DNA from: Escherichia phage ETEC-TG
Length of the DNA stretch: 64,000 nt
Sequence record: OR786310.1
Strand: one strand, 5' to 3'
Positions 3,120-30,989 of the stretch are shown one piece after another (within the stretch, counting starts at the first letter, position 1; each line of letters opens with the position of its first letter). The notes below the pieces were generated by a model. The model saw only the letters and a program-made list of their open reading frames with translations. It was not told the origin of the DNA and did no database searches. The position numbers and the translations under genes are program-made.

Positions 3120-5995
3120 TGTCAAGAGTTAAGCACAATATTGACAACACGTTTCAGTTGATTGAAGGGTTGGTTCAGTTTTTGGAAAGAAATACTGGTC
3201 TTACCATAGATCCTACGGTTCAGCACTACATTATCAACCCACAAAACGTATTGGCGAACAACAGACACTTTATTAACTGGACAGCGCAGGAAGGGCAACC
3301 AAACGGTGACGCTACTACCGAAGGTCAATCTGTGCTTATCACTGGTTTTGCTTATGCATATTTGGCTACAGGAGATAAAAAATATCTTGAATCTGCCGAG
3401 AAGTATTGGCAAGCCTATATAGATCACTTCTTCGGGGGCCAACCTATTCCTGATCCTCCAGCTAAGTATCGTCCCAACTGGATCATCAATGGTAAAGAAC
3501 CACGTTTAGCACACTACCCTCTCACAGATGATGGGTATCCTACGCACGGTGGGTTCAAAGGTAGCATGATGACTTGGATTAACGGAAGGACTGTTATTCC
3601 TAAAGGTGCGCCACATTGGGGAGAATACTTAGATAAAGCTTGGTTTGCTTTCAATGGTAATCTTGGTTGGAACTCTGTTAACGCAACAGTGTATGCAACT
3701 AACCCAGATGGTTCAACCAACTGGAAAGAATATGGAGATCAGTGGGACGTTGAATGGATTATAGATCGTCTAGGACGTAAAGTTGATTGGGATGGTAACA
3801 TTTTATCCACTGGGCATAGCTTTGCAGAATATGGAACAGTGCAACTTAAAAACGCTTCTGTGAACGGAGACTATAAATTCAACTACGCTACATGCAATCC
3901 TGTAGAACACGGTGGATATCTGCTTAAGCGTAATGAGATGTGGCATAACCGTCCTGTAAACGTTCCGGTAGAGTTAGGTTATCAAGACAATGCTTCCGAT
4001 GCTGAAACGTGGTGGTGTGATGCAAACTACTTGATGTATCAGATCACAGGAGAGAGAAAATACTGGCTTTGCTGGCAATCTTCTTTATTGTTGTGTCAAG
4101 ACTACTCAAACATCGATATGTTTGATAAATTCTTCCGTAGATCTACGACAGCAATAATTCCTTTTACAGATGGTATCTCGTATGATTACTCATACCCATC
4201 TACAGCAATACCTAAATATTCTCGTGACGAGTTAGGATACACAGTAATTCGCCAAGATGTTGCAGCACAAACAACTCTAGAACAACAGGCAGTTTGGTTC
4301 AGAGTGGATCAGAATTCAAAACTGCGTATTGAGTTTCAAGGCGTAGATGATGCAGGGGAAGGTGTTCTTTTCCGTCCAGAGTTAGAATTAAGCAAGACTA
4401 AGAGTGAAACAGACACAGTGACATATCGTTGTGGCTTACCTCTTGGTGCAGCTAATATGACTAAGATGGATATACCTTTATCCAGTTTTATGCGCACTGA
4501 ACCTCCTGGAGGTGGTGTATATATTATTGCTGAACCTAGAATCATTGTTGACTGGGGAAGCAATACTGTGATACAATATAAATATGCAACTGGTATTGCT
4601 GGGACAAATAGTGATCAGATAGTTTCTGCTAATATGGATTCAGATGGTGGTTTTACTATTGGGTTTTGGTTAACACCAACTAAAACAACCAATTTAAAAT
4701 CTATTACGTATCGTTCATACGCAGATGATTTTAACATCACTATTACGGATTCCGCAGGTTGGAGATGGTGGGCCATGTTAGAAAAAACAAATTCTGCATG
4801 GGTTACTAAAGCTTTAAGTCCTGCTGATTTCAAATTAAGTACTTGGCAACCTAATCACAATGACACAGAGACAAAACCTTCGTCAATAAACCTGACTGCT
4901 GTTGATCAGATGAACATTGCATTGGATTCTGAACCTGCAAATGGCTTGACAGGGGCAATCGACTTTTATTGCGTTAACGATATCCCATCTTTGTATTCTT
5001 CAGCCGCTGGTGATGATTACACAATGTATTTCAGGGTTACAGTTTCATCTGAAAATCCTTATACAGCAAAACTTGGAGATTGTACAATACTGGACTACAA
5101 ACTTGACAGTTTGAATTATACTCCAGGAATCATCCCATTTTCCAATATTAGTGATCCTAATACAGCATTATATGACGGTTGGCGTGGTATTCCTTACCCA
5201 GGTTATCAATACCCATCCTTATATTGTTTTAAAGGGAGAGATATTGACTGGGTTCGTATGAACAACAGTATAGACTTTTTATATGATTCACAAATGTGGT
5301 TTTATAATAAGTTTGCCCCTGTAATGCCTGGGCCAATGGCACAAGCTTATGTTTGGGATCGTTGGGATGCTCATAAATATGGAAACAAAAATGAGTTCAC
5401 AATGTATCATTGGAACGATAAAGCTTGGGATGGTTATGAAGCAAGAGCATTCTTCTGTGCGTGTCATACGGTATACGAACTAAAGCGACGAGGAGCCGAA
5501 GTTCCTGAAAAACTTTTAACAGTTTGTAAAAACTGGATCAACTACCTGAAGTGGTTCCAAGATAACAACGAAGGAAGAACACCAACAATATTTTATCCCA
5601 ACGGAGAAGTGGCTGCGCCTGTAGATGACTTTACAAGTCACATGTCTGCGCTCTTTATGGCGGGATGTGCTATAATGGGGATGGCTGGATATGATTCAGA
5701 AATTCCTAACATTAGAATAGTAGCAGATCGCTGTTTTGAACTTATTCAGGAAAACTATATTGTTCTTGGTCCTAATCACGTCATGAATGGTTGTTGGAGT
5801 GCTGCTCCTAGACCAGACAGTGATAACGGAGTCTTCTTTGGCTTCCACGCTGGAGAGTTGTTACGTGGTTTTGGGTTGTATGCTTTATACAAAAAACTTA
5901 ATCCCCAAAATGCATTACCTGTTTTGGATTCGAGCAATATTCCTGCACTTACTGTTTTGACAATGGCAAACATTAGTGTGGACGTTACCGAGTAA
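3119..5995 (+). CDS. Large structural protein, putative tail fibre / receptor-binding protein
   Basis: 958 aa ORF in baseplate/fibre module; Trp/Tyr-rich composition; function inferred from context. Confidence 0.45.
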   Translation: MSRVKHNIDNTFQLIEGLVQFLERNTGLTIDPTVQHYIINPQNVLANNRHFINWTAQEGQPNGDATTEGQSVLITGFAYAYLATGDKKYLESAEKYWQAYIDHFFGGQPIPDPPAKYRPNWIINGKEPRLAHYPLTDDGYPTHGGFKGSMMTWINGRTVIPKGAPHWGEYLDKAWFAFNGNLGWNSVNATVYATNPDGSTNWKEYGDQWDVEWIIDRLGRKVDWDGNILSTGHSFAEYGTVQLKNASVNGDYKFNYATCNPVEHGGYLLKRNEMWHNRPVNVPVELGYQDNASDAETWWCDANYLMYQITGERKYWLCWQSSLLLCQDYSNIDMFDKFFRRSTTAIIPFTDGISYDYSYPSTAIPKYSRDELGYTVIRQDVAAQTTLEQQAVWFRVDQNSKLRIEFQGVDDAGEGVLFRPELELSKTKSETDTVTYRCGLPLGAANMTKMDIPLSSFMRTEPPGGGVYIIAEPRIIVDWGSNTVIQYKYATGIAGTNSDQIVSANMDSDGGFTIGFWLTPTKTTNLKSITYRSYADDFNITITDSAGWRWWAMLEKTNSAWVTKALSPADFKLSTWQPNHNDTETKPSSINLTAVDQMNIALDSEPANGLTGAIDFYCVNDIPSLYSSAAGDDYTMYFRVTVSSENPYTAKLGDCTILDYKLDSLNYTPGIIPFSNISDPNTALYDGWRGIPYPGYQYPSLYCFKGRDIDWVRMNNSIDFLYDSQMWFYNKFAPVMPGPMAQAYVWDRWDAHKYGNKNEFTMYHWNDKAWDGYEARAFFCACHTVYELKRRGAEVPEKLLTVCKNWINYLKWFQDNNEGRTPTIFYPNGEVAAPVDDFTSHMSALFMAGCAIMGMAGYDSEIPNIRIVADRCFELIQENYIVLGPNHVMNGCWSAAPRPDSDNGVFFGFHAGELLRGFGLYALYKKLNPQNALPVLDSSNIPALTVLTMANISVDVTE

Positions 5996-19992: not shown

Positions 19993-22665
19993 ATGTTTCC
20001 AATTCCAATATTTACTATTATGACCAGCACTGGTGTCGTTCCTCTGCCAGCGGGTATTGTTAAAAAAGTAATCACTTTAGATTACCCAGATAATGCTGGT
20101 AATTCTAACAGCAGTTTAGCAATTTTGCTTAATGATGGTAGATTGTTTACTCAAGGCGCAAACCTTTTTGGTGAGATTGCAGATGGAACTCGTAGTGCAC
20201 GATTCAATAATTTCCACTTAGCTTCTACTGTAGTAGCGGATGTGTTTACCGCAGATCGTTGTTTTGTTATTAAAACTAACAGCGGGGGATGGCAATATTC
20301 AGGATTGACAGCAGGGTTGGTAGGATCTATAGCAGCAGGTGGTACGGATGCATGTGTAACTACTTGGACCAGCTTTCCATCTGTAATAACAGGGACTATC
20401 TCTTTAGCCAATCTTAAAGAGGTTAAAGGAGGGTATAACAATACTCTTTGGTTAATGAATAGCGGTGTTCTTTATGGATCGGGTCAAAACACAGTAGGCA
20501 GTTTAGGTGCAAGCACTACTAACGAAGTTTCTACTCCCCGTCAGATAACAAGTTCAGCAGTTGCTTTTGATGCAGGTTATAACCAATGCTCTTATGTCAA
20601 CAATGCGGGAACCTTGCGTGTTTGTGGAGCTAGTAAAGGTTTAGCAGGTAATAATAACACAACAACCGCTTTTGTCAATGCCACGATATCCACTACTGAA
20701 ACAGTGTATGTCAAAGATTACATCAATACAGTTTCCCAGACAATAGTTGTAGGAGATACCTCCGGTGGCGCGGGTACAGTAAACTACTTATATGTTAGAT
20801 CTAATACAGAAACAACCTACACTAAACTGGACACCTTTGCAGCAGGTTTCTCAACATGGAAATTTCCACCAAGCCGCCACTCTTTTTTCGTTGGGATCAA
20901 TAATTCCTTGTGGGCTATTGGTAAGAACTACACTGCAAACTTAGGTTTGGGATATGATTCTGCGAGCGGAGATCCACTCCAAGTGGGAAAACCAGTTAAA
21001 CCTGAAGGAGTGGGTTCCTGGGATATAAACAAGCTCACAAGCGTTCATACGTTGAATATGGATATTACTAACCAATTAGGTTATCAAGGAACCTTTTTCG
21101 TTTATAACGGGGATATGTATTATTCCGGTATTTGGAAAGATGGGAAAGCCTCGTATCTGTTCAATAGTGGTCTAAACTATAATAAATTCACACCAATAGC
21201 AAGCTCCGTGATTACGGGGGATGTTCTGGCAACTGGCTTAACTACAGATTCTTTAGGAATTTGTATTGTAGGTGGAACTAAACAGTTGACACATTCTGTT
21301 AGCCCGGAAGGAGGTAAACTTTTCAATATTAAATACACTTCTTCTGTCCCTGCAAACATGACAATATCATCTACTGGTTTAATGACTTTCCATGCAGAAG
21401 GTGGTTTTGATGCAGGTATGACAGCCTTAAACGCTGAAGGAACAACTTTATCAGATACCTCTGGAGGATATGCTTCAACATTGAGTGTTTACACCCCTAG
21501 CTTATCTGCGATGGATGTAGGAACAACACAAACAATGGTAGCAGAAATAACGCCAACAGGAGCAGCAAGCTTACCTGGTATGGTTGTTGAGTATACAACT
21601 ACAGATCCTAATGTTGCTACAGTAGATCCTACAACTGGTGTAATAACTGGTGTTGGTGATGGTGGTTGTAGAATTGGTTGCACAGCTACATATCAAGGTG
21701 TTGTTACCGCTTCTGATAGTTCTTATTTAACGGTGAACGCTGTTGCGGGAAAGGAGTTAGCTCCATCTCCGAGTAGTAGTTTAACGGTTCTAAACGGATA
21801 TTTCAACCACTCGGCAGATGGGGCAATTACGTTCCCAATTTTATCGGGTACTGTCACACCAGCTAACTTTGTAGTTAAGGTGGATGACGTTGTAATACCT
21901 TCAAATAAAGTAATATTTAGAAATAAAGCTTTCTCTACAGTGGATAGTTATCCAGCAGGAGAATATAGACTGGCTATTGAATTTGCAAGTGCTTCAGTAG
22001 TGAATAGTGTTGATGTGTCTATGGAAGCAAATCCAGATCTTTTAGAATTATGGGGCGGCAACAGAATTGGTTATTCTACAAGCCCAGCCTCACAATTCTT
22101 AAAAGGTTGTGCTAACTTAAGACGAATAACTTCTGATTGTTTTAGTAACACATCTTACACCGGAACATCTATAAGTGGTATCTTCTCTGGCTGTACAAGT
22201 TTGACAGCTATCCCTGAAGGATTATTCAGTGATGCTTTATTTCCTTCAATGACAACAATGTCAAGCACGTTTGAAGGTTGTACATCTTTAACATCTATTC
22301 CTTCAGATTTATTTAAAAATCTATCAAAAGTTACAAGATATTCTTACACCTTTAAAGATTGCACCTCTCTTGCAGAAGTTCCAGCAGGAATGTTTGATAA
22401 TATTCCAACGAAAGTGACCTCTTTAACAGCTACATTCCAAGGTTGTTTAGCACTTACAGATTTTAATAAAATCTTTAATGACAACCCAGGGTTAACTGTT
22501 TGTGGTAAACGTGGAGCATTATCTTCTTTCTTTAGTGGATGCACAAATCTTACAGGAACAGGAACAACATTAACAAATACATTAGGCGGAGTAGCTAATA
22601 GTTACCTATTCAGGTATTGCACAAAACTTTCTGATTATAACAATATTCCTTCGGGTTATAAATAA
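19993..22665 (+). CDS. Receptor-binding/tail fibre protein with Big_2-like Ig domain and C-terminal BspA-type leucine-rich repeats
   Basis: 890 aa; Ig-like segment (VATVDPTTGVITGVGDGGCRIGCTATYQGVVTASDSSYLTVNA); C-terminal repeats FSGCTSLTAIPEGLF / FEGCTSLTSIPSDLF / FKDCTSLAEVPAGMF / FQGCLALTDF / FSGCTNLTG. Confidence 0.55.
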   Translation: MFPIPIFTIMTSTGVVPLPAGIVKKVITLDYPDNAGNSNSSLAILLNDGRLFTQGANLFGEIADGTRSARFNNFHLASTVVADVFTADRCFVIKTNSGGWQYSGLTAGLVGSIAAGGTDACVTTWTSFPSVITGTISLANLKEVKGGYNNTLWLMNSGVLYGSGQNTVGSLGASTTNEVSTPRQITSSAVAFDAGYNQCSYVNNAGTLRVCGASKGLAGNNNTTTAFVNATISTTETVYVKDYINTVSQTIVVGDTSGGAGTVNYLYVRSNTETTYTKLDTFAAGFSTWKFPPSRHSFFVGINNSLWAIGKNYTANLGLGYDSASGDPLQVGKPVKPEGVGSWDINKLTSVHTLNMDITNQLGYQGTFFVYNGDMYYSGIWKDGKASYLFNSGLNYNKFTPIASSVITGDVLATGLTTDSLGICIVGGTKQLTHSVSPEGGKLFNIKYTSSVPANMTISSTGLMTFHAEGGFDAGMTALNAEGTTLSDTSGGYASTLSVYTPSLSAMDVGTTQTMVAEITPTGAASLPGMVVEYTTTDPNVATVDPTTGVITGVGDGGCRIGCTATYQGVVTASDSSYLTVNAVAGKELAPSPSSSLTVLNGYFNHSADGAITFPILSGTVTPANFVVKVDDVVIPSNKVIFRNKAFSTVDSYPAGEYRLAIEFASASVVNSVDVSMEANPDLLELWGGNRIGYSTSPASQFLKGCANLRRITSDCFSNTSYTGTSISGIFSGCTSLTAIPEGLFSDALFPSMTTMSSTFEGCTSLTSIPSDLFKNLSKVTRYSYTFKDCTSLAEVPAGMFDNIPTKVTSLTATFQGCLALTDFNKIFNDNPGLTVCGKRGALSSFFSGCTNLTGTGTTLTNTLGGVANSYLFRYCTKLSDYNNIPSGYK

Positions 22666-22670
22666 GAAAA

Positions 22671-22694
22671 GGAGCCATTTGGCTCCTTTCTTTT
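22671..22694. terminator. Bidirectional terminator between convergent operons (GGAGCC-ATTT-GGCTCC flanked by A/T tracts)
   Basis: Perfect 6-bp stem with T-tract on plus strand and A-tract upstream; lies in 56-bp convergent gap. Confidence 0.65.
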
Positions 22695-22721
22695 ATAAAA
22701 ACTCTTTATAGATCAATAAGA

Positions 22722-23609
22722 TCAGAATGGAATATCATCATCGAAGTCCATTGGAGGTTCTTCTTGATTACTTGGAGTTGGTTCTGGTTGTGGTTCAGGT
22801 TTTTTAACTTCTTTCTTCTCTTCTTTCTTAGGTTGTTCTGCGGAACCACGAATGGCAGCAGCAACTTTATCAGACAAAGCTAGAACTTTACGAGCAGAGT
22901 CAATCAAATCTTCTACAGATACAGTCTTAATGGTATGGTCTTTACAAGCATTGAGGATAGCGTGACCAACAGATGCCCCAAGATCATAATCATTAATGTC
23001 AACGCCACGAGATTCAGCAATTTCCGATTTCAGCGTGACAGTTGCAGATTGAACAACCCCAGCGATATCGAAAGCATCACCTTTAACACCATTACGAATC
23101 AGTTCCAGTGCACCATTTACTGCGTGACCAGTTTCCAGACCTACAGTATCACGTTTTTTATAGGACTGCTTAGGAGCAGCATCGTTGGAACCTTTATTGC
23201 CAGAAGATTTGTTAGACTTCTGAACACCATCGGTAGACAATACTGTAATACGAGATTTTTTAGTATTGTAGTAAGTTTTACCGCCTTTATTATCAACGCG
23301 ATCAATATCAATACTTACTTCTACACCTTTTTCAATAGTGATCCAATTATCACCTTCTTTGACTTGCAGGTTTTCATAACCTTCTTTCAGTTCAATGTCA
23401 CCAAGAGAAATCCAAACACCTTTCTCATCTGGTTTAGCACCTTTCTCTTTCAGAACAAGAGAAGCTCGGTGAGTTGAAACAATCGTTTTTCCTTCCCAAT
23501 GAAAAGTTTTAGGTTCAGCGAATTTATCCAGTTTAACGTAGTCTACGATACCAGTTGCATAAGTTACGGTTTTGCCTTTACGATCAGTTTCAGTATTAAT
23601 TACGGACAT
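22722..23609 (-). CDS. Single-stranded DNA-binding protein (phage gp2.5-like) carrying host SSB C-terminal tip
   Basis: 295 aa; Lys-rich middle, Pro/Glu linker, C-terminal EPPMDFDDDIPF identical to the E. coli SSB acidic tip; GAGGAG RBS. Confidence 0.55.
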   Translation of the reverse strand: MSVINTETDRKGKTVTYATGIVDYVKLDKFAEPKTFHWEGKTIVSTHRASLVLKEKGAKPDEKGVWISLGDIELKEGYENLQVKEGDNWITIEKGVEVSIDIDRVDNKGGKTYYNTKKSRITVLSTDGVQKSNKSSGNKGSNDAAPKQSYKKRDTVGLETGHAVNGALELIRNGVKGDAFDIAGVVQSATVTLKSEIAESRGVDINDYDLGASVGHAILNACKDHTIKTVSVEDLIDSARKVLALSDKVAAAIRGSAEQPKKEEKKEVKKPEPQPEPTPSNQEEPPMDFDDDIPF

Positions 23610-24063: not shown

Positions 24064-24657
24064 TTACCAAGGAATATCCTCTTCTTCCAATCTGGTATCT
24101 ACTTGAGGTGGACGTGGAACCTTAACCTCTTTCACAAAACGAAGATATGGGAAACGTGTAGCAATTTTAATAACGTGTTTGGCATCTTCTCTAACGTCTT
24201 TGTGCAAGAAGCAGATCCCTGTTTCCAAGGTTGTTTCAAAATCTTTAGAATAATAACAATCCTTCCCATCAAATGCAGCCTGGCAGATGGACAGATCGAA
24301 CTCATTTAGAAAGGTTGTCATTACGCTTGGTTCCATAATCATAAGGTTGCAAAGCTGACCATCACGTTCAAACTCAAAAACGTGTTTAAGACCAGTAACA
24401 CCTTCATAATTGTCAGAAGCCTCTTTGTTTCCTAGTTTACGAATATTGGTTCCCATTAAAGCAGATGCAATTAATCCTTGTATTTGTTCTTCAGTCCGAT
24501 GTGCAGGAAGGGATGTATAGAAATCAAGATCACGTCCAGCAATATCAAGAATACGCCAATCACGAACAGCACCGCCAGCCAAGACAGAATTAGGATCAGC
24601 GATCTTTAATACGGTAAGAATTTCTTTGGCAATATTGATTTGTTTTGATTTAGTCAT
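24064..24657 (-). CDS. Minimal nucleotidyltransferase (Pol-beta superfamily, CCA-adding/poly(A) polymerase head-like)
   Basis: 197 aa; motif LAGGAVRDWRILDIAGRDLDF matches GGxVRD...DxD of tRNA nucleotidyltransferase heads; C-terminal EEEDIPW. Confidence 0.5.
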   Translation of the reverse strand: MTKSKQINIAKEILTVLKIADPNSVLAGGAVRDWRILDIAGRDLDFYTSLPAHRTEEQIQGLIASALMGTNIRKLGNKEASDNYEGVTGLKHVFEFERDGQLCNLMIMEPSVMTTFLNEFDLSICQAAFDGKDCYYSKDFETTLETGICFLHKDVREDAKHVIKIATRFPYLRFVKEVKVPRPPQVDTRLEEEDIPW

Positions 24658-25285: not shown

Positions 25286-27883
25286 CTAGTGACAGGACGC
25301 CCAGGAATTACCCACATCGTATCCGGCAGTAAGCTGAACGTTAAGATTGTAAAATTCTCCAGCCTTAGTAACAGCTAAAGCAGCAAGTTCACCTGCCCGA
25401 CTATAGGCTGTAAACCATCCACCTTTGGGAGATTCATGAATGTTAGCCCAAATTTGCCCTGTCTCTTTTTCCTTATTATGCTTCCATTCTTCGACTTTAG
25501 CAAGGCATTCTTTATCAATTTTCTTTTGTTCTTCAGGATCGTCTACTTTCTTCCAACCTAATGATTCGGGTGAAAACCATTTGAATTCTACAAGGTTACG
25601 AGAAACTTCAAGCTGGGCTTCATCGTGGTATGCAATCATTTGTTGCACGAAGTCTTTATTCTTCCAGTCATCTTTAAAGAAGTCAACACTTAGCCCTTCT
25701 TCTTCGATCATGTCGTCATAAATAACCATTGCACGTTTAGCACAAATAACCCCACCACTTTGGAACAGAGAGTTAAGAATCGCGTGAGCAGAACGAGTAG
25801 GAACCTTACGACCGTCAATACCCAAAACATATTGTTTACCAGTCTTAACCCAGAAATCGTTTAAACGTTCTTTAAGACGCGCCAATGGAAATGCAGCTTC
25901 CCAGAAAGCATCGAACACCAATTGACCTGTAAACTTGTCGCTACCAATTGTTTTAGCAACCTTGTCGGCTTGTGCACCATAAGTAATACCATACTTAACA
26001 GATTTAGCAGGACTACGTTCAAATTTACGTCCAATAGTTTCAGTGATACGTTTTGCCATCATTGTGTGAACATCGTTAGGTTTCTCTAACAACAGAGCGT
26101 TACAATATTCGTGTGGCTCCGGCTCGTACCGCCAACAGTAGTGTGATTCAATTTTTGCTTCCAAAGAGTCGAAGTCGTAGCCAATCTGGAAGTACTTAGG
26201 AACCTCTACACCAAACAAGTTACGCATCTCCCATCCAAACAAAGATGTGACACGAGGAATATTAGCTACAGACCTATGCTTCATACGAGAGGTTGCAGCA
26301 TCACATGTAGCTGCTGGGGTAGGAATACGACCATCCGCCCTTACTGCGGCTAAGAAACCTTTATCATATTCTTGATCTTCCTCATCTTCTTCCCAATCAG
26401 CACCACCGCCTAAAATAGAATTCCTACGATGCTTATACGTTAAGTATTCTACAATCTGTGTAGCATAAGGGAATTTCTCACCTAAAGCTTGCAGGTTAGG
26501 ACAGATTTCTTTTTCCTGACCTTTGGTAAAACATGGGTTAGTCAATACTTTAAGACCGCGACCCTTACCTTTTGCTATACGCTCTTGAATCTTCCTCTCC
26601 AAGGTTTCCGGTGTGCACTCCAGATGATCACAACGATCCTGACAAAAATTAGAAGACAGAGTTTGCTCAACGTAAGCTCGAATACCTTTCTGAAGTTCTT
26701 CCTCGCTCTTTTTAATCTTGGTGCCAGATTTAAGAGTCAAGTCTTTATCTTTATATTCAGACGGTACCCAACCTAATCCTACAAGCCAGTTTTTAATATG
26801 GGTAGTATCGTTCAATGTTGCAGGGATATTAGGATCACACAAAGGCTCATCTGCTGCAACTGGTAGTTTCCACTCTTTCCCCAACATAACTAACCACCAA
26901 TCGCCATTCCTCTCTTCCAAATGACCATCATGTTTCTTAGCAAAATTGATCATATGGTTAGTTGGCTCTAAGTTCTTTTTAATTTGCAACTTAGGTGGAA
27001 TAAAAGCCTTAAGATAACCTTTTGTTGCTGGTTTAGGTGGCAAAATAGGCTCAACGAGTAAACGAAGACGCTCCATTTCTGCATCCAAAAAAGCAAGGTT
27101 CTCTTCTGCTTGCTTCATGTTAAAAGCAAACCCACGGTGTTCCTGGCGTGTAATAATGTCTGCTACACGTTGTTCAAGTTCAAATGGACCTTCCCATTTA
27201 TCATAATCACCCCATTCTTCCATAAGGTAATTATATACGCTCGTATTGGCTTTGTTGTCATAGATACAGTAATAAAGCATATCAGCAGCAAAAGTCTTAA
27301 ATCGATCTTCTTCTGGAACCTCTTTACGAAAATCTATTTTTACATCACCCCCTGCCTTTCGAGAAAGTGCTGCCAAGCTATGTCCTGATTTGCCCTCAAT
27401 CTTTCGATCTGGGTTTAACACTTTACTCAAAATCAAGGAGTCAATAAGTTTTACCTTATTTTTACCCCACGTATTATATTTAACACTGTAATCTAAACCA
27501 TAAAACAGTTTTGTAGCCAACCAGTCATAGTTGATACCGTTGTGAGCCACAGCCATTTCAACCAGATATTCAGGCTTATCTTTAAAATAACCTTCATGAT
27601 TAATAAAGTCTGGGAAATCTTTTAGTTGAAAATGTGTGTAATCTTGCGCCACATACTCTTTAAGAACATATGTGTATTTACCATCTGACTCTTCATAAGG
27701 ACGCCCATCAAAGATGTATTTAGGGCCATCGTGGAAAGCTACTATTTCTCCTGTTTCATGGTTCTCTAAGACAATACAGTGCATTTGAAATGTGTCTTTG
27801 AGACGATAAGGACTAGCTAAATAATCGATAGTGTCATTATTCAACAATCCGTTTGCTTCAATATCCCATGTAAACTTACTCAC
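25286..27883 (-). CDS. DNA polymerase, family A, with 3'-5' exonuclease domain
   Basis: 865 aa; exo motif WDIEANGL; Pol A motifs DFDSLEAKI (A), RKFERSPAKSVKYGITYG (B), YHDEAQLE (C); GTG start with AGGAGG RBS. Confidence 0.8.
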   Translation of the reverse strand: MSKFTWDIEANGLLNNDTIDYLASPYRLKDTFQMHCIVLENHETGEIVAFHDGPKYIFDGRPYEESDGKYTYVLKEYVAQDYTHFQLKDFPDFINHEGYFKDKPEYLVEMAVAHNGINYDWLATKLFYGLDYSVKYNTWGKNKVKLIDSLILSKVLNPDRKIEGKSGHSLAALSRKAGGDVKIDFRKEVPEEDRFKTFAADMLYYCIYDNKANTSVYNYLMEEWGDYDKWEGPFELEQRVADIITRQEHRGFAFNMKQAEENLAFLDAEMERLRLLVEPILPPKPATKGYLKAFIPPKLQIKKNLEPTNHMINFAKKHDGHLEERNGDWWLVMLGKEWKLPVAADEPLCDPNIPATLNDTTHIKNWLVGLGWVPSEYKDKDLTLKSGTKIKKSEEELQKGIRAYVEQTLSSNFCQDRCDHLECTPETLERKIQERIAKGKGRGLKVLTNPCFTKGQEKEICPNLQALGEKFPYATQIVEYLTYKHRRNSILGGGADWEEDEEDQEYDKGFLAAVRADGRIPTPAATCDAATSRMKHRSVANIPRVTSLFGWEMRNLFGVEVPKYFQIGYDFDSLEAKIESHYCWRYEPEPHEYCNALLLEKPNDVHTMMAKRITETIGRKFERSPAKSVKYGITYGAQADKVAKTIGSDKFTGQLVFDAFWEAAFPLARLKERLNDFWVKTGKQYVLGIDGRKVPTRSAHAILNSLFQSGGVICAKRAMVIYDDMIEEEGLSVDFFKDDWKNKDFVQQMIAYHDEAQLEVSRNLVEFKWFSPESLGWKKVDDPEEQKKIDKECLAKVEEWKHNKEKETGQIWANIHESPKGGWFTAYSRAGELAALAVTKAGEFYNLNVQLTAGYDVGNSWASCH

Positions 27884-28677
27884 TATTCCTCCTTTCTAAT
27901 GTTCTCCAGAACCCACTGAAGTTCTTTTAAACTTAAACTTCTTACTCCCGCAGTTTTACTAGCTTCAGTTTTAAGTAACGGGTAAGCCTCAATGATACGC
28001 GTTTTAAGATCAGAAGTCAAGGCTTTTAAAAAATAGGTAGATGCTTCAGATAAAGAATCTTCTTCTGATAACACTTTACCTGCACTTGCTCCCGCTCTCC
28101 TAACGGCTATATCGTAGTCTTTACTGTTACCTAATACGAATAGTCGATTCTCTCCTAAAACAACGGGAGAACGCTTCTTGTTGCGTTTAATCCATATCTG
28201 GAATACACAAGGAACATCCCAAGGTTCTCCATGAAGAATAAAAGATCCTTTTGGACATTCTTCTTCGTAAAGAAGATGCATGTGGGGATTTAGTTTGTGT
28301 GCAAAAAAGATTTTTTGAAATGTGCGAGGCAAGATAAAACAAATACCACCTTCGTTATCCAACATTTCAGCACAATGGTTAAAGAACTTAATGGCAAGAC
28401 TGGCATTTTTTCCAAACGGAGGATTACCGACAAAAGCAGTTACACTACCAACAGACTCAACAGATTGAGCTAAAAAATCTGCCTCAATACAATCTTCAAA
28501 CTTAGGGTCAATATCAAAAGAAGTTATGTTTTTAAAACAAGAAGAGAAAGCTCCTTCTCCCGCAGATGGTTCTACGTAGTTAGCTTCCTCTCCAAAAATT
28601 TCTTTGATCTTATCACATAAGAACCCCGCATAAGCGGGGTTAGTGTAATATTGATCAAGTATGTTCAACTTGCTCAA
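27883..28677 (-). CDS. DNA N6-adenine methyltransferase (gamma-type motif order)
   Basis: 264 aa; AdoMet motif EPSAGEGAF followed by catalytic GNPPFG; TTG start with AAGGAGGA RBS. Confidence 0.65.
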   Translation of the reverse strand: MSKLNILDQYYTNPAYAGFLCDKIKEIFGEEANYVEPSAGEGAFSSCFKNITSFDIDPKFEDCIEADFLAQSVESVGSVTAFVGNPPFGKNASLAIKFFNHCAEMLDNEGGICFILPRTFQKIFFAHKLNPHMHLLYEEECPKGSFILHGEPWDVPCVFQIWIKRNKKRSPVVLGENRLFVLGNSKDYDIAVRRAGASAGKVLSEEDSLSEASTYFLKALTSDLKTRIIEAYPLLKTEASKTAGVRSLSLKELQWVLENIRKEE

Positions 28678-29196: not shown

Positions 29197-29212
29197 AAGG
29201 GCCGAAGCCCTT
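29197..29212 (-). terminator. Stem-loop/terminator with UUCG tetraloop after primase-helicase stop
   Basis: AAGGGC-CGAA-GCCCTT followed on the minus strand by U/A-rich tract. Confidence 0.45.
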
Positions 29213-30989
29213 AATAGTTGCTATCCGTAGGCAAATTAGCAGGATTGTTGAAATACTGCTCTTTGTCATGCAGAGTTGCAGTTCTAATGTCATAGTAAAA
29301 CTGCCCTGCCGGACCAGTTTCCGAGAACTCACGGTTTTTTAGGATAAAGCAATGAGTCGTATTGCGTTCTACAGGGTCTTCAGCGGCTTTATCTCGTTCC
29401 AAAGCCAAGGTAATACCAGCGCCTTTAGCCAAGAAACTACTACCCATTGCATCGTCCTCTGTTAAGTGTTCATTGCCACCATTAGCCGATTTCTTAACGT
29501 GTGAGATGACGATAATAGTTATAGCGTACTCTTTCATGATGCGCTTCAACCATGTTGCTAACTCTTCCTGGGCTTGAACATCCATACCAGAAAGCAAATC
29601 AGAATAAGGGTCGATAACAAGAATTGTTACTCCAAAATAGATGATCATCTCCAAAACTTTTTCTTTGATAGACTCCACATCTGCTCCACGATCATCACAC
29701 ACATAAAAACGTGGTGATCCATCTTCTCTTTCGTAAAAATCTAGGATTTTTTCTTTATTCTCTTCCAAGATTTGAAATTTCTCTTCCGGTGTTTTCCTGT
29801 GTAGAGGAATATGCAGGAACGAGGACAACAGGTTACGAGAATATTTCTTATAAGTTGCTTCCAAGGACAGAATACCCAAGGTATGTTCTGGGTGAGCAAC
29901 AATAATATGTTTGGTGATCTCGTTCACCATCAAAGTTTTACCGATACTGGTCTTTGCCAGGATCACTGTAATCTCTTCCTCTACTAAACCACCACCCAGC
30001 ATATTTGCAGCAACACGCATAAAAGGAGGCAAGGTAATCATCTTGGATTCCAAGCATTCTAATGCAGCTTCATACAAGACATTAGAAGCATAAACACCTG
30101 CTGGGGTGTATAGACGAGCACTCCAAAAAGCTTTTACGAAATCTTTTGCACGACCTTCTTCCAGATACTGATTGGCATCCTTAAGATCCATCTGCATACG
30201 GTAGACTTTGTTACGGGGCAGCACCTTAACAATATTTTCAAATGCCTCATTACCTGCTTTGTCATTATCCATGCAAACAATAATCTTCTTAAATTTTTCA
30301 AAGAAAGGATATTGTGCCTGAACTTGTTTATACATACTGGTTTCACCAGTTGTGCCACTAACTACTGCTGGAAGTTCATATTTGTTGTCCAAGTTTTCAG
30401 ACAACATTTGATAAGCTGCCAGAGCATCGTGTTCACCACCTGTAATTACCACAGTATGAGAACGGTCTGCAAAACGAATTTGTCCAAAAAGATCTACATC
30501 TTTACCTACTTGACCAATAGGTTTACTGAAATCTTTAGGATGAATACGACGCTTAAAACCAACCAATTCTTTACCGATGGTAGTCGGATATAAACAACTT
30601 TCTACTACCATCTGATCCCCTTCCTGACGGTATTCATAACGAACACCATAGAAAGATGAAACTTTTTCTTTAATGCCTCGATAACCACGTGGGTTGGTTG
30701 ATGTTTCTTGAACAATTTTACGATGAATCTGTTTATTAAATTCCGAACCCACAATCTCCTCCTCTTCTTCTAAAACTTCACCATTTTCTCGTAACCATTC
30801 TACGCTAGGAATAGTGTATTCACACGCAAAGCACTTAGCACCTTTATGCTCTCCATTAGAATCTAATCCATAAACCATCAGGTTATTACGAGAGCGATCC
30901 TTGCCATTTTTCATGCAGCGCGGACAACCTGTATGCCCTTCCTTGCTAAGATCAACATCAAATCCATATTTAGTTATAATGTGCGACAC
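29211..30989 (-). CDS. Bifunctional DNA primase/helicase (T7 gp4-like)
   Basis: 592 aa; N-terminal zinc finger (CPRC ... CFAC), TOPRIM-like middle, DnaB-type helicase with Walker A AKTSIGKT. Confidence 0.8.
   Translation of the reverse strand: MSHIITKYGFDVDLSKEGHTGCPRCMKNGKDRSRNNLMVYGLDSNGEHKGAKCFACEYTIPSVEWLRENGEVLEEEEEIVGSEFNKQIHRKIVQETSTNPRGYRGIKEKVSSFYGVRYEYRQEGDQMVVESCLYPTTIGKELVGFKRRIHPKDFSKPIGQVGKDVDLFGQIRFADRSHTVVITGGEHDALAAYQMLSENLDNKYELPAVVSGTTGETSMYKQVQAQYPFFEKFKKIIVCMDNDKAGNEAFENIVKVLPRNKVYRMQMDLKDANQYLEEGRAKDFVKAFWSARLYTPAGVYASNVLYEAALECLESKMITLPPFMRVAANMLGGGLVEEEITVILAKTSIGKTLMVNEITKHIIVAHPEHTLGILSLEATYKKYSRNLLSSFLHIPLHRKTPEEKFQILEENKEKILDFYEREDGSPRFYVCDDRGADVESIKEKVLEMIIYFGVTILVIDPYSDLLSGMDVQAQEELATWLKRIMKEYAITIIVISHVKKSANGGNEHLTEDDAMGSSFLAKGAGITLALERDKAAEDPVERNTTHCFILKNREFSETGPAGQFYYDIRTATLHDKEQYFNNPANLPTDSNY

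Follow-up and report, generated by a model that had tools for sequence, protein, structure and literature searches.

An SSB-like protein of phAPEC8-like Escherichia phages ends in the exact C-terminal tip of E. coli SSB

We analyzed 64,000 nucleotides of Escherichia phage ETEC-TG (sequence record OR786310.1; this whole stretch is called the window) and focused on a gene whose product resembles proteins that bind single-stranded DNA (SSBs). The window derives from a Phapecoctavirus (Stephanstirmvirinae), that is, from one of the phAPEC8-like E. coli myoviruses with genomes of ∼150 kb. According to the gene order in the window, the SSB-like gene is the last gene of a leftward replication module, and a GAGGAG Shine-Dalgarno sequence can be read 6 bases 5' of its ATG. 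The gene and the predicted parts of its product, with positions counted from the first nucleotide of the window, are as follows:

22722..23609, minus strand: SSB-like protein gene (PHROG 4477), 295 amino acids, ATG start, TGA stop, taken from the list of open reading frames (ORFs)
23226..23609, minus strand: N-terminal OB-fold domain, residues 1-128, all-beta according to AlphaFold2, putatively binding single-stranded DNA (ssDNA)
23148..23225, minus strand: basic, low-complexity disordered linker, residues 129-154, isoelectric point (pI) ∼10, predicted local distance difference test score (pLDDT) <50 for residues 133-149
22848..23150, minus strand: conserved four-helix bundle, residues 154-254, pLDDT >90, putative oligomerization domain
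22758..22847, minus strand: K/E/P-rich disordered linker, residues ∼255-284, hypervariable in length and sequence, pLDDT 42-68
22725..22760, minus strand: tip, residues 284-295, EPPMDFDDDIPF, the same sequence as the C-terminal tip of E. coli SSB (SSB-Ct)

The SSB-Ct serves as a hub by which enzymes of genome maintenance are recruited to ssDNA (PMC3632105). An initial annotation of the window had proposed that the SSB-like protein ends in exactly this tip, and the alignment with SSB of E. coli K-12 (from NC_000913.3) bears this out: the phage protein ends in ...PSNQEEPPMDFDDDIPF and the bacterial one in ...APSNEPPMDFDDDIPF, and the last 12 residues are identical. Judged from the two sequences, an exact C-terminal match of this length cannot be a product of chance. 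It is even longer in some homologues (P0033, P0059), which share 15-16 residues with E. coli SSB, including the non-essential 'PSNEPP'. In a BLASTP comparison with E. coli SSB, residues 270-295 alone aligned (E 4e-08 for that pair), and the alignment of the family profile with E. coli SSB was confined to the last 14 residues. Sequence matches to SSB in the PDB (1eqq, 7f2n) were likewise restricted to the tail, and the PHROG SSB families matched residues ∼247-295.

We compared the codons of the phage tip (GAA CCT CCA ATG GAC TTC GAT GAT GAT ATT CCA TTC) with those of E. coli ssb (GAG CCG CCG ATG GAC TTT GAT GAT GAC ATT CCG TTC). Six of the 12 differ, all of them at synonymous third positions, so that 30/36 nucleotides are identical and no difference is non-synonymous. 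Upstream of the tip codons, no DNA similarity to E. coli ssb was found. The absence of non-synonymous differences next to six synonymous ones argues for selection on the tip peptide, and the synonymous differences exclude a recent DNA copy of E. coli ssb. Since the tip is found throughout the family and is its most conserved segment (see below), it is an old trait under purifying selection. The idea that the host tip had been captured did not hold for a recent event, given these codon differences and an acidic [ILV]-P-F tail in nearly all full-length family representatives. Thus, as far as can be read from the sequences, the tip is an old, selected feature of the family and not recent host DNA, although an older or repeated exchange of tails among SSBs and this family may have taken place, as some homologues match over 15-16 residues.

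The fold of the protein was predicted in two AlphaFold2 runs with a 56-sequence alignment as input, one for the full-length protein (pLDDT 82.5) and one for residues 1-132 alone (pLDDT 90.7; predicted template modelling score 0.81). The structural neighbours of the OB model were all nucleic-acid OB domains, many of them from SSB, RPA and PriB. This confident OB fold supports the SSB-like reading of the initial annotation, which the lack of such a fold would have refuted. Its further statement, that the N-terminal body is unlike bacterial SSB, is correct for the sequence, where alignments cover the tail only, but not for the predicted fold, which is an OB fold as in SSB. The family alignment revealed the conserved OB-domain residues W66, W89, Y113, Y114, K34, K41, K84, K111, and H47, a composition expected of an ssDNA-binding face. 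The four-helix bundle contains the twin motifs G-H-A-x-N-G-A (161-167) and G-H-A-x-L-N-A (215-221) and the invariant glycines of the family; a structural-neighbour search with this bundle gave no informative match. Homologues from Vequintavirinae carry an extra barrel of ∼60 amino acids in the region of the basic linker (columns ∼215-290 of alignment A1), which is absent from the 295-amino-acid protein.

By sequence, the protein falls into none of the SSB families compared. Pfam offered no family for it or for any of 56 relatives, and PF00436 remained unmatched even at E<=1. The NCBIfam SSB model NF006533 matched the tail only, with 22.8 bits against a cut-off of 260. We rejected the remaining Pfam/NCBIfam matches, Ribosomal_60s and PF16773 (Phage_SSB; one member, E 0.031), as tail or low-complexity noise. 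Comparison with T7 gp2.5 yielded an hhalign probability of 0.3% and no BLASTP or tblastn match; for T4 gp32, with its zinc-containing OB core, the probability was 0.4%, with no significant BLAST match. We also searched the complete 150-kb genome of the relative phAPEC8_ev052 for other SSBs by tblastn and by its annotation. In this genome, E. coli SSB matched the tail of the gene described here and nothing else by tblastn, no gp32 or gp2.5 homologue was found, and the annotation contains no second gene called SSB. One phAPEC8 ORF (L008 10087-10872) aligned with the OB domain of E. coli SSB in the tblastn search (28% over 102 amino acids, E 0.56), but was rejected because it belongs to a goF-like PHROG without a match to an SSB family. 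The phage has genes of its own for a polymerase, a primase/helicase, a ligase, exonucleases, a UvrD-type helicase, and proteins resembling DprA and RdgC. With replication enzymes of its own, it is expected to have an SSB, and the 295-amino-acid protein is the only candidate. A literature search on phAPEC8 or Phapecoctavirus in connection with SSB gave no specific result.

The protein is 100% identical in the Escherichia phages phAPEC8_ev052 (where it is annotated as 'SSB'), AV126, SKA64, and others, and 61% identical to phi92 gp156. At >=99% identity it is present in 57 phage records, Escherichia phages foremost, in agreement with the enterobacterial host that the initial annotation had read from the tip. 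The hexapeptide DDDIPF is widespread in Proteobacteria and alone is no pointer to enterobacteria; from its sequence, the 12-residue tip would point to them more specifically. Among the relatives, the gene is annotated as SSB in few records and as hypothetical in most. About 20 records named 'Campylobacter phage' (e.g. A110a, C12, MG0656xx) contain phi92-like or rV5-like versions of the gene with 62-72% identity, which looks like host mis-assignment or contamination.

PHROG 4477, which the protein matches with E 2.7e-97, carries the label 'unknown function'. A word-indexed search retrieved 137 relatives, and when 1.84 billion cluster representatives were searched exhaustively with a profile, 318 family representatives emerged at E<=1e-3; the family is found in Stephanstirmvirinae and Vequintavirinae (phi92, phAPEC8, and rV5 groups). 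In the 56-sequence alignment, the tip is the best-conserved segment: its mean column identity is 0.86, whereas the OB domain reaches 0.54 and the K/E/P-rich linker 0.34, and P294 and F295 are invariant. No conservation was seen upstream of the tip in the listed family tails. A library search provided 138 additional representatives, and 105 of these terminate in x-P-[FW] (104 were counted by motif; P0191, with PPF, was added). IPF was the most frequent ending (59), followed by LPF (22) and VPF (14), with a few sequences each ending in APF, FPF, PPF, or x-P-W. Most of the other ends consist of an acidic stretch with x-PF, DF, or AF, or have residues added past the tip, and ∼8 of the 138 lack a tail, mostly short sequences that terminate where the helical domain ends. 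In P0150, P0157, P0182, P0186, P0196, and P0223, the sequence ends in IPFN, IPFS, or VPFN, one residue beyond the usual terminal Phe, which is either real or an effect of gene calling. P0266 (519 amino acids, eight matched stretches) was discarded as a repetitive low-complexity artefact. Likewise, short ORFs annotated as 'SSB' in Salmonella phages 40 and NINP13076, examined as candidates for a fusion between the helical domain and a different body, proved to be pieces of the same Vequintavirinae gene from records with poor assembly or annotation and are thus uninformative.

Among relatives, the gene differs at its 3' end. Two features mark this end:

22694..22724 (start approximate): spacer and stop codon of the SSB-like gene, the site exchanged for a homing-endonuclease cassette in relatives, as defined by the junction alignment with L001
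22667..22690, both strands: bidirectional intrinsic terminator (terminator scan), 3' of the SSB-like gene and shared with a convergent tail-fibre-like gene of 890 amino acids

The window carries the endonuclease-free allele. In some relatives, the stop codon of the SSB-like gene is the exact insertion site of a gene for an HNH/EndoVII-type homing endonuclease (PHROG 2340). The insertion replaces the TGA and ∼28 nucleotides of spacer and adds 15 residues, APIGLQYGRNFLHCF, past the IPF, so that the extended C-terminus of endonuclease-bearing alleles reads ...DDDIPFAPIGLQYGRNFLHCF. This was observed at L001 3887-4397, with the HNH endonuclease at 3905-4399, and at L007 597-1995, the latter from phage Mt1B1_P17, and the start of the endonuclease gene overlaps the extended reading frame. 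Mt1B1_P17 is a cultured phage, and ∼6 phage records with an endonuclease at least 95% identical likewise have the tip-extended allele. The extension motif recurs in distant members of the family (APIGLQY, APVGLQY, SPLGLQY, AYLGLQY), and the endonuclease lineage therefore seems to target the conserved end of the gene, which codes for the tip. When the SSB-Ct binds canonically in its pocket, the terminal Phe is engaged through its free carboxylate, as in the peptide complexes of ExoI, chi, and RecQ. The 15-residue extension should therefore destroy canonical pocket binding, and the viable phages that bear the endonuclease would probably carry a masked tip. Endonuclease genes also lie beside other phage SSB genes: in T7 (L010 9100-9900), endonuclease gene 2.8 comes directly after the SSB gene 2.5, and in T4 (L011 145500-148000), gene 32 adjoins the homing endonuclease gene segG. 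This is thus a recurring arrangement.

The convergent gene on the other side of the terminator (19993..22665, plus strand) is a tail-fibre-like ORF with weak RCC1/WD40-like and Big_2 matches in a relative. The C-terminus of its 890-amino-acid product contains repeated 'F.GC..L' units and resembles leucine-rich BspA-type repeats.

The module that ends with the SSB-like gene comprises, in this order, genes for a primase/helicase (29211..30989), a DarB-like protein, a family-A DNA polymerase of 865 amino acids, small ORFs, a nucleotidyltransferase, and an ORF of 130 amino acids. The polymerase gene (25286..27883, minus strand) has a GTG start and overlaps by 1 base with the stop codon of the upstream 'DarB-like' ORF of 264 amino acids (27883..28677, minus strand). 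In Logan contig L001 (1..740), the gene in the polymerase region is called as 1189 amino acids, and its length or structure thus varies between relatives. Within this module, a second protein carries a tail resembling the SSB-Ct:

24064..24657, minus strand: nucleotidyltransferase of 197 amino acids with a Pol-beta-type head (GGAVRD...DLD motif; PHROG 10174), ending in ...RLEEEDIPW

The annotation of a relative describes this protein as tRNA nucleotidyltransferase/poly(A) polymerase. Its DDIPW end is kept in 10 homologues down to 58% identity, with a variable linker in front of it, and is absent from two distant homologues. In the whole genome of phAPEC8_ev052, it is the only other SSB-Ct-like tail. 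From the likeness of the two ends, the nucleotidyltransferase tail may use the same docking site as the tip of the SSB-like protein. An extended version of this idea, which we regard as rather unlikely, is that the D-D-I-P-[F/W] tail serves as a portable docking tag on more than one phage protein, namely the SSB-like protein and the nucleotidyltransferase, which would plug into pockets of the host SSB interactome or into one phage hub; homing endonucleases would repeatedly mask the tag, and the resulting natural tip-on/tip-off alleles could modulate recognition by defences such as DRT10.

A functional context is provided by Bas52_0087 (QXV84166.1) of Escherichia phage RudolfGeigy (Vequintavirus). 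DRT10 (UG17), a reverse-transcriptase defence, requires this protein as its trigger, according to a preprint (bioRxiv 10.64898/2026.04.29.721553, April 2026). The same study predicted it to be SSB-like, with two OB-fold domains and an FDDDIPF C-terminal tip, and described mutations of BASEL phage Bas52 that escape DRT10 and map to Bas52_0087 (D252V, Y351C). Host ExoI/SbcB, a known SSB-Ct partner, antagonizes DRT10 and is genetically linked to Bas52_0087, and a hijack of, or competition for, this host partner was proposed (bioRxiv 10.64898/2026.04.29.721553). The 295-amino-acid protein is clearly homologous to Bas52_0087 by hhalign (probability 100%, E 2e-56), and BLASTP gave 33-35% identity in the OB and helical domains (E 9e-16 and 8e-13). 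In this alignment, D252 of Bas52_0087 corresponds to D154, which is at least 90% conserved and lies at the start of the bundle, and Y351 corresponds to A250 in the last bundle helix.

Taken together, domain prediction, locus, and family comparison make it likely that the 295-amino-acid protein is the phage's own SSB for replication and recombination, a member of a non-canonical phage family whose tip would dock partners that bind the SSB-Ct, be they from the host, the phage, or both. According to this model, the N-terminal OB fold, with its conserved aromatic and basic residues, would bind ssDNA at phage replication forks and recombination intermediates. The four-helix bundle, where the escape mutations of Bas52_0087 map, may confer oligomerization or cooperativity, and the disordered linker would present the acidic tip. 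The tip could then enter the pockets for the host SSB C-terminus, and SSB-Ct-binding enzymes would be drawn to phage ssDNA or competed off it. Candidate partners in the host are ExoI/SbcB, RecQ, PriA, RNase HI, Pol III chi, and DnaG; on the phage side, the polymerase, primase-helicase, and recombination proteins are possible partners as well. Like E. coli SSB and T7 gp2.5, the protein would probably fold an unbound tip back onto its OB domain. The exact identity with the host tip and the link to SbcB favour host pockets as the docking site, and by analogy with Bas52_0087, a hijack of, or competition for, host SSB partners by the tip is plausible.

Four points weigh against this interpretation. 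The OB domain has a near-neutral pI of 6.7 and is not strongly basic. The viable tip-extended relatives suggest that a free tip is not strictly essential for growth. A further SSB of unrecognizable sequence in the genome would be missed by tblastn. Finally, Bas52_0087 expressed alone neither triggered DRT10 nor harmed the cells (bioRxiv 10.64898/2026.04.29.721553), and a massive titration of host SSB partners is thus not evident.

By a different explanation, the protein is primarily a decoy or inhibitor. In that case, an abundant protein would soak up ExoI, RecQ, PriA, Pol III chi, and DnaG, and would thereby shut down host replication and repair or shield phage ssDNA ends from ExoI, with ssDNA binding being secondary or absent. 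A perfect copy of the host tip is what such a protein should have, but strong titration of essential partners does not agree with unaffected host viability upon expression of Bas52_0087 alone, nor with tip-masked alleles in viable phages. The conserved OB fold with its aromatic and basic residues, the position in the replication module, and the lack of another SSB in the genome searched also fit a working SSB better, and we consider a decoy quite unlikely. It is highly improbable that the tail simply goes back to a recent horizontal transfer, in which recombination would have captured the 3' end of a host, plasmid, or prophage ssb, and that it has no special selected role. The match of some members to E. 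coli SSB that includes 'PSNEPP', a hypervariable linker that would tolerate swaps, and the reach of the PHROG SSB family matches beyond the tip could be explained this way. Against this stand the six synonymous codon differences, the lack of DNA similarity further upstream, and the family-wide occurrence of the tip, whose superior conservation marks it as old and under purifying selection.

More serious is the possibility, which we hold open as a secondary explanation, that the tip acts mainly within the phage machinery: it might regulate the protein's own ssDNA binding and recruit the phage polymerase, primase-helicase, recombination proteins, or the DDIPW nucleotidyltransferase, and its likeness to the host tip would then reflect shared ancestry or convergence on an acidic tail with an aromatic end rather than a hijack of the host. 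In T7, gp2.5 and gp4 have acidic, Phe-ended tails that bind to the phage polymerase and to gp2.5's own DNA-binding cleft, and two replisome proteins share one docking site. The second module protein with a conserved DDIPW tail recalls this situation. A phage with its own polymerase, primase/helicase, ligase, and exonucleases should need few host replication proteins, acidic tails with aromatic ends are found in many variants throughout the family, and the tail of the HK620 SSB recruits the phage protein Sak4 (PMC5928155). However, an exact match of 12 residues to the host, and of 15-16 in P0033 and P0059, goes far beyond a generic acidic tail and fits selection by host SSB-Ct pockets, and a host interface is suggested by the genetic connection of Bas52_0087 with DRT10 and SbcB/ExoI. 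Docking to host pockets and action within the phage machinery are not mutually exclusive.

In bacteria, more than a dozen enzymes of genome maintenance are guided to ssDNA by the SSB tip as their hub. A phage SSB that combines an unrelated body with a perfect copy of the host tip is a natural experiment on the requirements of this hub. Moreover, the family (318 clusters, without a Pfam model and mostly 'hypothetical') provides the only SSB candidate in two abundant groups of E. coli/Klebsiella/Salmonella myoviruses that are candidates for therapy, and its genes are better annotated as SSB-like than as hypothetical. The domain map, the positions equivalent to the escape mutations (D154/A250), and the naturally tip-masked alleles such as that of Mt1B1_P17 make it testable whether the targets of the tip lie in the host or in the phage, or whether the tip is dispensable. 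The parts most worth following are the helical domain, the DDIPW-tailed protein, and the tip-masked alleles generated by endonucleases.

Among known systems, bacterial SSB (E. coli Ssb; PF00436, NF006533) shares with the phage protein the succession of an OB fold, a disordered linker, and an acidic tip with identical last 12 residues. It differs in that its PF00436 OB domain is not detectable by sequence in the phage protein, with similarity limited to the last 14-26 residues. T7 gp2.5 and, more loosely, T4 gp32 are similar as phage-specific SSBs with a sequence unrelated to host SSB, an OB fold, and an acidic, Phe-ended tail, which in gp2.5 (...EADEDGDF) mediates contacts with replisome proteins. 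Unlike the tip described here, the gp2.5 tail is no copy of the host tip and lacks the I-P-F motif; gp2.5 also has no helical bundle and no profile similarity. In phage HK620, the last six residues of the SSB are needed to recruit the phage recombinase Sak4 onto SSB-coated ssDNA (PMC5928155). That protein is homologous to canonical SSB, and its tip has diverged (NDYPPF), whereas the present one is non-canonical with a perfect host tip. Overall, it fits a long-known theme, namely that SSBs of phages and plasmids keep an SSB-Ct-type tail.

The closest counterpart is Bas52_0087, and the essence of the tip finding is already in print for this sister lineage. Both proteins have homologous OB domains, helical domains, and tails in identical order, with an FDDDIPF-type tip after a disordered region. 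In contrast to the phage protein with its one OB domain, Bas52_0087 is 408 amino acids long and contains an extra barrel of ∼60 amino acids (the 'second OB') between the first OB and the helical domain; only Bas52_0087 is reported to trigger DRT10. Since it lacks this second barrel, the 295-amino-acid protein is the single-OB variant of the family and, by sequence comparison, a new member of this recently described kind of SSB-like protein.
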